The notes under the pieces are model-generated. The model was not told the origin of the DNA. It worked only from the letters and a program-made list of their open reading frames with translations, and made no database searches. From assembly GCA_948958005.1 (NCBI GenBank), contig CARDEQ010000001.1, positions 4,142 to 44,110 of the forward strand: a stretch of 39,969 bases of DNA. Direction: 5' to 3'. This DNA comes from an uncultured Clostridia bacterium (lineage in GTDB: Bacteria > Bacillota > Clostridia > TANB77 > CAG-508). This document shows, piece after piece, positions 37,746 through 38,005 of the stretch (position 1 is its first letter; every line of letters starts with the position of its first letter). The position numbers and the translations under genes are program-made.

Positions 37746-37774
37746 TTGACATATCCTAGAATATGTGCTATTAT
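37746..37774 (+). promoter_or_regulatory. promoter TTGACA-17-TATTAT of a small RNA
   Basis: Near-consensus hexamers with no ORF downstream. Confidence 0.65.
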
Positions 37775-37780
37775 ATAGAT

Positions 37781-37858
37781 ACTAGATAAGCCAGTCTAGT
37801 AATAAGATGTACACAATATAAAAAGACTAGGAAGCCTGAACAATTTCCTAGTCTTTTT
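37781..37858 (+). ncRNA. candidate antitoxin sRNA (~80 nt)
   Basis: Own promoter, hairpin ACTAGA/TCTAGT, 13-bp terminator stem (37821-37833 / 37845-37857) plus a T run. Blocks 37789-37796 and 37807-37814 are complementary to the toxin mRNA start region. Confidence 0.55.
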
Positions 37859-37863
37859 CTATG

Positions 37864-37932
37864 CTACTCACTTATTAGCTTTATTATTAAATAAAGTAAA
37901 ATAAGTTTTAACACTGTTAGCCAGTCCTTCAT
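37864..37932 (-). CDS. candidate type I toxin, 22-aa hydrophobic peptide MKDWLTVLKLILLYLIIKLISE
   Basis: Strong RBS GAAAGGAGG and its own promoter. A 5' hairpin pairs with the SD. Convergent with the sRNA and shares its terminator. Confidence 0.5.
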   Translation of the reverse strand: MKDWLTVLKLILLYLIIKLISE

Positions 37933-37976
37933 AAAATGTACACCTCCTTTCTACCTTTAGGTGAAAGGCATTTACT

Positions 37977-38005
37977 AATATAGCATTATTGTTATAAAAT
38001 GTCAA
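37977..38005 (-). promoter_or_regulatory. promoter TTGACA-17-TATATT for the toxin mRNA
   Basis: -35 at 38005-38000 and -10 at 37982-37977 on the minus strand. Confidence 0.6.

Follow-up and report, generated by a model that had tools for sequence, protein, structure and literature searches.

The loci whose design comes closest to the one described here are the par-like loci of Firmicutes, which are defined by convergent promoters, a bidirectional terminator, two direct repeats (DRa and DRb) over the translation initiation region, and a 5' stem-loop over the Shine-Dalgarno (SD) sequence (PMC7472228). The repeats of these loci are poorly conserved and give locus specificity, the loci occur both on mobile elements and in core genomes, and the YUNR U-turn, from which kissing starts in the toxin RNA's terminator loop, is not present in all par homologues (PMC7472228). 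Here we describe a 260-bp cassette in a 39,969-nucleotide stretch of DNA (the window) from an uncultured Clostridia bacterium (GenBank assembly GCA_948958005.1, contig CARDEQ010000001.1, positions 4,142 to 44,110), where it is flanked by a cI-like repressor gene and a large serine recombinase gene. The cassette is probably a par-type type I toxin-antitoxin system, a reading to which we give a probability of about 0.77.

The cassette shares all four architectural features, as judged from its sequence and predicted folds, with the par locus of the Enterococcus faecalis plasmid pAD1 (RNA I/Fst and RNA II). Locus-specific, poorly conserved repeats and an occurrence in both mobile and core settings are also true of the family to which the cassette belongs. 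The two differ in the peptide, which is 22 to 23 amino acids (aa) long in the cassettes and about 33 aa long in Fst. The Fst/Ldr signature, a Trp before the charged tail and PXXXG(C), is absent from the cassette peptide, and the P/D/S/T-XXX-G(C) motif that lies inside the transmembrane helix of Fst and Ldr is not found in the cassette peptides. The toxin mRNA is shorter as well (about 155 nt, predicted, versus about 230 nt in par), and the hosts are uncultured gut Clostridia. In the relatives L002 and L024/25, the shared terminator that is a feature of par is replaced by separate terminators. A first-pass annotation of this DNA had called the locus par/Fst-like; the RNA architecture and the comparative data uphold the par half of that name, but the peptide fails both the Fst/Ldr signature and the Pfam tests. 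What is supported is a putative par-type cassette in which a small peptide is under antisense control: the cassette appears to work like par, and its toxin is not a demonstrable member of the Fst family.

Other described systems resemble the cassette in part. Clostridial prophages carry the Clostridioides difficile systems CD0977.1-RCd11 and CD0956.2-RCd10, which likewise combine a small hydrophobic peptide with a convergent antisense RNA, and maintenance of a C. difficile prophage by a type I system has been demonstrated experimentally (PMC7699646). Toxins of the CD0956.2/CD0977.1 group are 34 to 59 aa long, with a hydrophobic N terminus and a Lys-rich C terminus, and the C. difficile antitoxins have long complementarity with the convergent toxin mRNA and probably act via degradation (PMC6563280). 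In the cassette, by contrast, the two RNAs overlap only at the terminator, and repression is predicted to act through short blocks in the initiation region; going by the published descriptions, its peptide is also set apart by being much shorter and having no Lys-rich tail. The Bacillus subtilis pairs txpA/ratA, bsrG/SR4, and yonT/SR6 (skin, SPbeta) are carried by prophage-like elements, each of which splits a sporulation gene and is removed by a large serine recombinase (PMC6563280, together with general background). The element in the window likewise interrupts a gene, cotJC, with a large serine recombinase at the junction. The B. subtilis pairs overlap at their 3' ends, encode toxins of 28 to 60 aa that belong to other families, and have no 5' direct-repeat pairing. 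The Ibs/Sib systems of enterobacteria have hydrophobic toxins of only 18 to 19 aa that gene callers usually miss and, as in the cassette family, several copies per genome with cognate-specific small RNAs (sRNAs) (PMC2887945, together with general background). Unlike the sRNA of the cassette, however, the Sib RNAs are fully overlapping cis-antisense RNAs of a different phylum, with no shared terminator or repeat architecture.

Predicted RNAs and their pairing in the window

The first-pass annotation had proposed two convergent promoters, TTGACA-17-TATATT on the minus strand and TTGACA-17-TATTAT on the plus strand, and both are found. Each has a 17-nt spacer, a TG extension, and 11 of 12 consensus matches; in the 2.5 kb that was scanned, only three sites reach at least 11/12, and two of these are the cassette promoters. 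The minus-strand promoter would drive the peptide mRNA, and the plus-strand promoter would drive an sRNA that, as previously described, is without an open reading frame (ORF), with none of at least 20 aa present. The predicted minimum free energy (MFE) fold of the mRNA is at -41.9 kcal/mol (z = -3.8 versus shuffles), and that of the sRNA is at -23.5 kcal/mol (z = -5.0), with positions 37801-37819 unpaired.

Both RNAs would end at one intrinsic terminator, which has a perfect stem (37820-33 with 37845-58) and U-runs in both directions. It is part of an inverted repeat with 18-nt arms (37816-33 and 37845-62) of 94% complementarity. The annotation was right that this terminator is shared and bidirectional, and its 13-bp stem at 37821-37857 was close; the stem is 14 bp, at 37820-37858. 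The two RNAs are fully complementary across the 39-bp terminator, and their overlap is confined there. The loop of the window terminator contains a YUNR U-turn (UUCA); across the family, 25 of the 44 loops have a YUNR motif, roughly the number that chance would give.

Further pairing is predicted outside the terminator. In the DNA it is visible as a direct repeat, AGCCAGTC, at 37789-96 and 37919-26, and as a repeat pair, ATAAGATGTACAC (37802-14) and ATAAAATGTACAC (37931-43). According to RNAduplex, 37943-37931 would pair with 37814-37802 over 13 bp, and 37927-37919 with 37797-37789 over 9 bp; on the mRNA, the target of the longer block (block b) takes in the final G of the SD, the entire spacer, and the first two bases of the AUG. 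The window duplex has a predicted energy of -32.8 kcal/mol. Shuffling the sRNA 1000 times gave -11.7 ± 2.8 kcal/mol, and -25.3 at best, which puts the window duplex at z = -7.4; the window mRNA and the best of 43 foreign sRNAs of the family gave -22.4 kcal/mol. The pairing between sRNA and initiation region that had been suggested from the repeats alone is borne out by this hybridisation prediction. Every feature that the first-pass annotation had listed is present, at its given position or no more than a base or two away; coordinates of these and the other features are collected in the table.

Table. Features of the cassette, its neighbours, and the 28-aa sub-branch (positions in the window unless a locus is named)
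Feature	Position	Strand	Remark
-35 TTGACA, small-RNA promoter	37746..37751	+	sequence scan
-10 TATTAT, TG-extended, small-RNA promoter	37769..37774	+	sequence scan
Predicted ORF-less antitoxin sRNA, ~80 nt	37781..37861	+	ends inferred
sRNA pairing block a (AGCCAGUCU)	37789..37797	+	
sRNA pairing block b (AUAAGAUGUACAC)	37802..37814	+	single-stranded in predicted sRNA fold
Predicted peptide (toxin) mRNA, ~155 nt	37816..37970	-	ends inferred from promoter and terminator
Shared bidirectional intrinsic terminator	37820..37858	both	14-bp stem, 11-nt loop
22-codon ORF and stop, encoding MKDWLTVLKLILLYLIIKLISE	37864..37932	-	
mRNA target of block a, 9 bp	37919..37927	-	last base of codon 2 to second base of codon 5
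mRNA target of block b, 13 bp (one of them G.U)	37931..37943	-	unpaired in mRNA MFE fold
Shine-Dalgarno core GGAGG	37943..37947	-	read from sequence
5' stem-loop CCUUUCACC-UAAA-GGU(A)GAAAGG	37946..37968	-	MFE fold
-10 TATATT, TG-extended, peptide mRNA promoter	37977..37982	-	sequence scan
-35 TTGACA, peptide (toxin) mRNA promoter	38000..38005	-	sequence scan
cotJA	2556-2906		upstream of cotJC
cotJB	2903-3229		upstream of cotJC
cotJC 5' part	3229-3320		N-terminal 31 codons, end at 3320
cI-like repressor (HTH + S24 peptidase)	37045-37705		split by frameshift
Large serine recombinase	38046-39452		
cotJC continuation	39465-39575		frame resumes (YGGPDGELAASLRYLSQ...) directly after serine recombinase stop
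28-aa sub-branch	L002 2618-2979; L024 1440-1740; L025 1950-2250		

A family with predicted locus-specific pairing

Relatives of the cassette were collected with two independent anchors. The first was a 26-nt conserved pattern in the 5' untranslated region (5'UTR) of the toxin mRNA, searched in species-representative genomes. It gave 46 matches, all in metagenome-assembled genomes (MAGs) of uncultured gut Clostridia, and about 45 distinct relatives. Of the 45 distinct loci that could be parsed, all ascertained via the toxin 5'UTR only, 44 have a convergent TTGACA-17-TAnnnT sRNA promoter, and the bidirectional terminator is kept in most family loci. The second anchor consisted of the sRNA promoter and terminator only and was run on metagenomes, mostly from the human gut, with at least 120 matches. 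Among the matches listed, a small hydrophobic ORF with an SD stands at 73 of 115 assessable sites, and nearly all of these encode family peptides; this sRNA-anchored set includes several 5' hairpin sequences and, again among the matches listed, truncated or start-codon-mutated copies. More than 70 further relatives are found in metagenome contigs and a few in viral contigs, and the arrangement recurs in well over 100 loci. The hosts are low-G+C uncultured gut Clostridia of human, mouse, rabbit, goat, and chicken.

The translation initiation region and the sRNA of the same locus form predicted duplexes with a mean of -27.1 kcal/mol, compared with -12.8 for non-cognate and -11.3 for shuffled partners, and in 33 of the 44 loci the cognate sRNA takes the top rank. 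In cognate pairs, the median length of the longest perfect complement is 10 nt, with 41 distinct sequences in the 44 loci, versus 6 nt in non-cognate pairs. In the loci compared, then, the complementary blocks vary between loci and match within a locus, i.e., they co-vary. The nearest relative (L071) is an example of compensation, with AACTGGTT in its mRNA and AACCAGTT in its sRNA, where the window has GACTGGCT and AGCCAGTC. Transition mismatches within the blocks are G.U-compatible in 15 cases and of the A.C type in 1 (p = 3e-4, which is optimistic since the loci are not independent), and this 15:1 bias points to selection at the level of RNA rather than of DNA sites. Several MAGs have more than one copy (L037/L050, L040/L069, L041/L075, L068/L076, and L057), some of them within a few kb. 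For L037/L050, L041/L075, L068/L076, and two L057 copies, cognate duplexes are predicted at -21 to -33 kcal/mol and cross duplexes at -9 to -19 kcal/mol; in the pairs tested, copies of the same genome are predicted not to cross-pair and would be orthogonal.

The 5' end of the mRNA appears to add a second layer of control. The first-pass annotation had a 5' hairpin occluding the SD. Such a hairpin is predicted, and in the MFE fold it buries GAAAGG, including the first two G of the SD GGAGG, but the remaining AGG is free; modelled in this way, occlusion is partial, covering the 5' half of the SD, and not full. The 20 nt after the hairpin are unpaired in the same fold. Across the family, the predicted probability that the SD is unpaired has a median of 0.26, versus 0.65 in 285 ordinary genes of the same contigs (p = 1.7e-12), and this test used the sRNA-anchored set, whose ascertainment does not favour the hairpin. 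The same geometry is kept by at least five hairpin variants that differ in sequence (CCUUUC../..GAAAGG, CC..CUUGCU/GGCAGG..GG, CCCUC/GGGAG, CCCUUU/AAAGGG, and UCCUU/AAGGA), and all end in the SD. The alignment of the second variant has 91% identity, with only one sequence that has changes on both sides; because it is too invariant for a covariation count, we used the accessibility test and the comparison across variants instead. A toxin promoter lies upstream of the hairpin in 38 of 44 loci, and in 34 of these 38 its -10 element ends 7 to 8 nt before the hairpin, which would place the hairpin at the extreme 5' end of the transcript. In Firmicutes, a 5'-terminal stem-loop protects against 5' exonucleolytic decay, and a 5'-terminal hairpin would suit a long-lived toxin mRNA.

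The 22-aa hydrophobic ORF that had been read at 37932-37864 is present, with 64% L, I, V, M, W, or Y. Peptides of the family are 22 to 23 aa long, with the consensus MKDLLKLLKLYLIYLIVKHLSD, plus two 28-aa variants among the 5'UTR-anchored loci. Their length is fixed, and the entropy is 1.09, 0.44, and 1.33 at the first, second, and third codon positions. In the 35 loci whose peptide has 22 aa, frame +1 is interrupted by stops in all 35 and frame +2 in 27, and the start codon is ATG in 18, TTG in 13, and GTG in 4. Judged by this codon pattern, the family ORF is under selection at the protein level. Positions 18 to 22 read K-H/Y-L-S/K/D-D/K, a tail of 4 to 5 residues only, and a conserved Trp is absent; Pro and Gly are absent among the five commonest residues at positions 4 to 17 of the 35 aligned 22-aa peptides. 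An amphipathic helix was considered and is unsupported, as the peptides do not exceed shuffled sequences in hydrophobic moment.

None of 37 family peptides matches any Pfam family at E <= 10, Fst_toxin included, the peptide has no match in NCBIfam, none of 10 family peptides is present in a collection of 15 billion proteins, and the peptide motifs are absent from the literature searched. Gene callers miss the peptide. In Rfam 15, the best match of the window is ncr1015, at 21.8 bits versus a threshold of 60 and mostly over the terminator, and in 16 family loci only tRNAs reach threshold. A blastn search with the locus found no match in a phage collection and none in a plasmid collection, and an exact 33-mer was not found in viral contigs. 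Two other search patterns were tried and set aside: a relaxed hairpin pattern (CCTCCTTTC-N8-14-GAAAGGCA) returned mostly unrelated genes, and a terminator-only pattern returned mostly ordinary terminators of unrelated genes, with L092 as the only family member. The terminator AAAAGACTAGGA...TCCTAGTCTTTT also stands behind unrelated phage genes (viral contigs L082-L091) and appears to be a common terminator "word" in low-G+C taxa that is not specific to the cassette. In two unrelated viral contigs (L032, ~4300-4450, and L035, ~6520-6670), we observed another short hydrophobic ORF, MNTLEVLTFVLVIFAVLTYLDNHNR, which has no Pfam match, is preceded by an SD-masking hairpin (CCUUUC-N8-GAAAGGAGG), and is followed by a strong terminator; it is possibly a different type I toxin family.

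The genome copies mostly have housekeeping genes as neighbours (obg, rplU, trpS/tyrS, rho, dnaJ, and smc). The cassette also occurs in phage lysogeny modules at least four times, in the window, L002, L024/25, and L048. It is directly downstream of a cI-like repressor in the window and L024/25, and directly upstream of a large serine recombinase in the window, L002, and L048, the recombinase that adjoins it in L048 being a divergent one identified by Pfam. A screen of 23 viral loci with a related serine recombinase found a syntenic cassette in L002 only, which indicates that the cassette is accessory and not part of the integrase module. With tblastn, the window integrase and repressor matched only L002/L026 among all loci, plus a weak match in L090.

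The promoter and hairpin are conserved in L002, its peptide is 28 aa long (MTSYDLIWRLIILLILSMNNDNESQDKN), and its repeat block, TCATAAGATGTCA, differs from that of the window but is again found in both RNAs; L024/25, which came from the 5'UTR anchor, has a third repeat sequence, TCGAATGAAGACA. The peptides of this 28-aa sub-branch (MTSYDLIWRLIILLILSMNNDNESQDKN, MSSFDLIWRLIVLLLLSNSNDENQENKE) have an acidic or polar tail. The sRNA and mRNA terminators of the sub-branch are separate, so its RNAs would pair only via the 13-nt repeat at the start codon.

Decayed copies are present among the metagenome loci (L097, L124, L155, L199, and L162). Some of them retain an intact sRNA promoter and an intact terminator with a 5'-truncated toxin gene. 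L162 has a mutated start codon (ACG) and a frame that seems disrupted. Taken at face value, these copies show the pattern that would be expected if loss of the toxin is tolerated while the antitoxin is kept.

The prophage and the interrupted cotJC gene

The window, with a G+C content of ~29%, contains a siphovirus-type prophage with genes for terminase, portal, major head, tape-measure, and minor tail proteins, an endolysin, and a methyltransferase. The cassette is carried by an element of ~36 kb that splits cotJC, a gene for a spore-coat protein (Mn catalase). Reading of the split gene gave a common core of 11 nt, CAATATGGTGG, at 3310-3320 and 39462-39472; a search for att repeats of at least 12 nt found none. 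This layout, with a split gene and a recombinase at the junction, is known from the intervening elements of sporulation genes of the skin and SPbeta type.

The repressor gene that precedes the cassette is split. One frame (37045-37473) encodes its helix-turn-helix (HTH) part and another (to 37705) its S24 peptidase part, which includes the catalytic GDSME motif; the frameshift is near 37434-37440, at an A-run (aaaataaaac). The split is either a homopolymer sequencing error or the mark of an inactivated, non-cleavable repressor. Only 41 bp separate the end of the repressor gene from the sRNA promoter, which is on the same strand, and a sequence scan found no terminator between the repressor stop (37705) and the cassette. 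For these reasons, repressor transcripts would hold the antitoxin sequence in their 3' end.

Several other reading frames of the window are interrupted as well. The resumed cotJC frame breaks again after ...DIGTEE, with a stop at 39576-39578 (Mn_catalase profile position 66). The remainder of the gene is absent from the window (39576-39969), a pattern suggestive of a second insertion or a rearrangement. Two ORFs that overlap each other (4922-5729) have matches to a tyrosine integrase, in its N-terminal SAM-like domain and in part of its catalytic domain. They look like a broken second integrase in the left part of the inserted element, and the insert may be composite. In the regions 13976-17039 and 23399-25106, the tape-measure protein is made up of two adjacent ORFs that both match tape-measure families, and the ORF of the large terminase subunit, with a C-terminal match only, overlaps another ORF upstream. 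Further frameshifts in these regions are possible, reflecting either a decaying prophage or assembly errors.

Weighing the par-type reading

How would such a cassette work? In the par-type reading, a constitutive sigma-A-type promoter on the minus strand would drive an mRNA of ~155 nt for a 22-residue hydrophobic peptide, and the extreme 5' end of this mRNA would fold and hide the 5' half of the ribosome-binding site. The convergent plus-strand promoter would give an sRNA of ~80 nt, and the same bidirectional terminator would end both RNAs, which would make them perfectly complementary there and let the sRNA pair with the 3' end of the mRNA as well. Two blocks in the 5' part of the sRNA would pair with the mRNA from the last SD base to codon 5 (22 bp, -33 kcal/mol), and this pairing would block the access of ribosomes and silence the peptide. 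If the sRNA decays faster than the mRNA, a stop in transcription of the cassette would lead to synthesis of the peptide and to membrane damage. We infer the production of both RNAs, their relative stability, the toxicity of the peptide, and its biological role. For the window, C. difficile phiCD630-1 offers an analogy that makes a role in retaining the prophage-like element plausible. The first-pass annotation had pointed to the stabilisation of C. difficile prophages by type I systems, and that precedent stands (PMC7699646), but most members of the family lie beside housekeeping genes, and prophage stabilisation by the cassette is plausible only. For the chromosomal copies, roles in stress or phage defence are possible.

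Several points weigh against this reading. Most members are chromosomal, so that a role in addiction is not general. Many of the loci are related, and the number of loci is not a number of independent events. Because the genome set was collected by means of the hairpin sequence, hairpin conservation is circular there, and on this point the sRNA-anchored set is the informative one. The peptide matches no known toxin family in Pfam or NCBIfam and is unusually short; its stretch free of charged and polar residues is only 8 to 12 aa, most members have a Lys in the middle, and a full transmembrane helix is not obvious.

In an alternative reading, with the same RNA mechanism, the cassette encodes a small membrane or amphiphilic peptide that is regulated by antisense RNA, has a physiological role (in stress, the envelope, or sporulation), is benign at native levels, and stabilises no element. 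It would fit the position of most copies between housekeeping genes rather than on mobile elements, the uncharged stretch of only 8 to 12 residues, and a peptide that has neither the charged tail nor the signature Trp and PXXXG of Fst-type toxins. In addition, the functions of chromosomal par homologues are unclear even for Fst (PMC7472228). However, the predicted tight, multilayered repression (a masked SD, 49% non-ATG starts, long spacers between SD and start, and an antisense RNA), the multiple orthogonal copies in one genome, and the decayed copies with an orphan antitoxin are typical of genes whose product has to stay off. The cassette also recurs in phage lysogeny modules (window, L002, L024/25, and L048), and we consider this alternative unlikely. 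Much less credible still is the idea that the repeat blocks are sites in DNA, such as operators or scars of recombination or duplication, and that the "sRNA" is just the terminator region of the repressor gene. The blocks are indeed directly repeated in the DNA, no terminator belonging to the repressor gene precedes 37820, and the AAAAGACTAGGA..TCCTAGTCTTTT terminator also follows unrelated genes in these taxa. But a protein site would stay constant, whereas 41 of 44 block sequences are distinct and both copies change together, and the 15:1 bias toward G.U-compatible transitions makes sense only at the RNA level. Moreover, the near-consensus sRNA promoter is kept whatever the neighbouring gene, and no regulator protein travels with the cassette. 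Promoter-like hexamers are common at 27 to 30% G+C (22 sites versus 16.6 expected from shuffles), and one might still suppose that AT-rich intergenic DNA, a spurious short ORF, and an ordinary terminator came together by chance. This explanation is refuted, with next to no probability left to it: the arrangement recurs in well over 100 loci found with two independent anchors, the ORF is conserved as a protein, and the complementarity co-varies.

A further reading goes one step beyond the par-type one. With its 8 to 12 uncharged residues and, usually, a central Lys, the peptide might be no classical pore-forming transmembrane toxin but a new, very small effector that is membrane-active or targets a protein, and the mobile cassettes might be wired into the lysogeny switch; we regard this combination as a long shot. 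In such a scheme, the antitoxin would be supplied by read-through from the repressor gene, and the cassette adjoins the recombinase that would excise the element from cotJC. If this were true, release of the toxin would report that repressor transcription had been lost or that excision had taken place outside the mother cell, and would in this way police a developmentally excised element.

Under the par-type reading that we prefer, the mechanism itself is the expected one, and the interest lies in the size of the family, its lack of annotation, and the modularity of par. Going by the comparisons above, the cassette represents a new, large, and unannotated family of a known kind in uncultured gut Clostridia, with members in ~45 species-level genomes and numerous metagenome contigs; one genome often has several copies, predicted to be orthogonal. 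As C. difficile toxins suggest by analogy, the putative 22-aa toxin could be used as a compact marker for counter-selection in Clostridia that are genetically difficult, and dozens of natural, predicted orthogonal pairs of sRNA and target are a resource for the study of RNA-RNA specificity. Here the complete regulatory design of par would be used with a peptide that has no Fst signature at all, which bears on the modularity of par-type regulation and on a possible common origin of this regulation and the Fst toxins.

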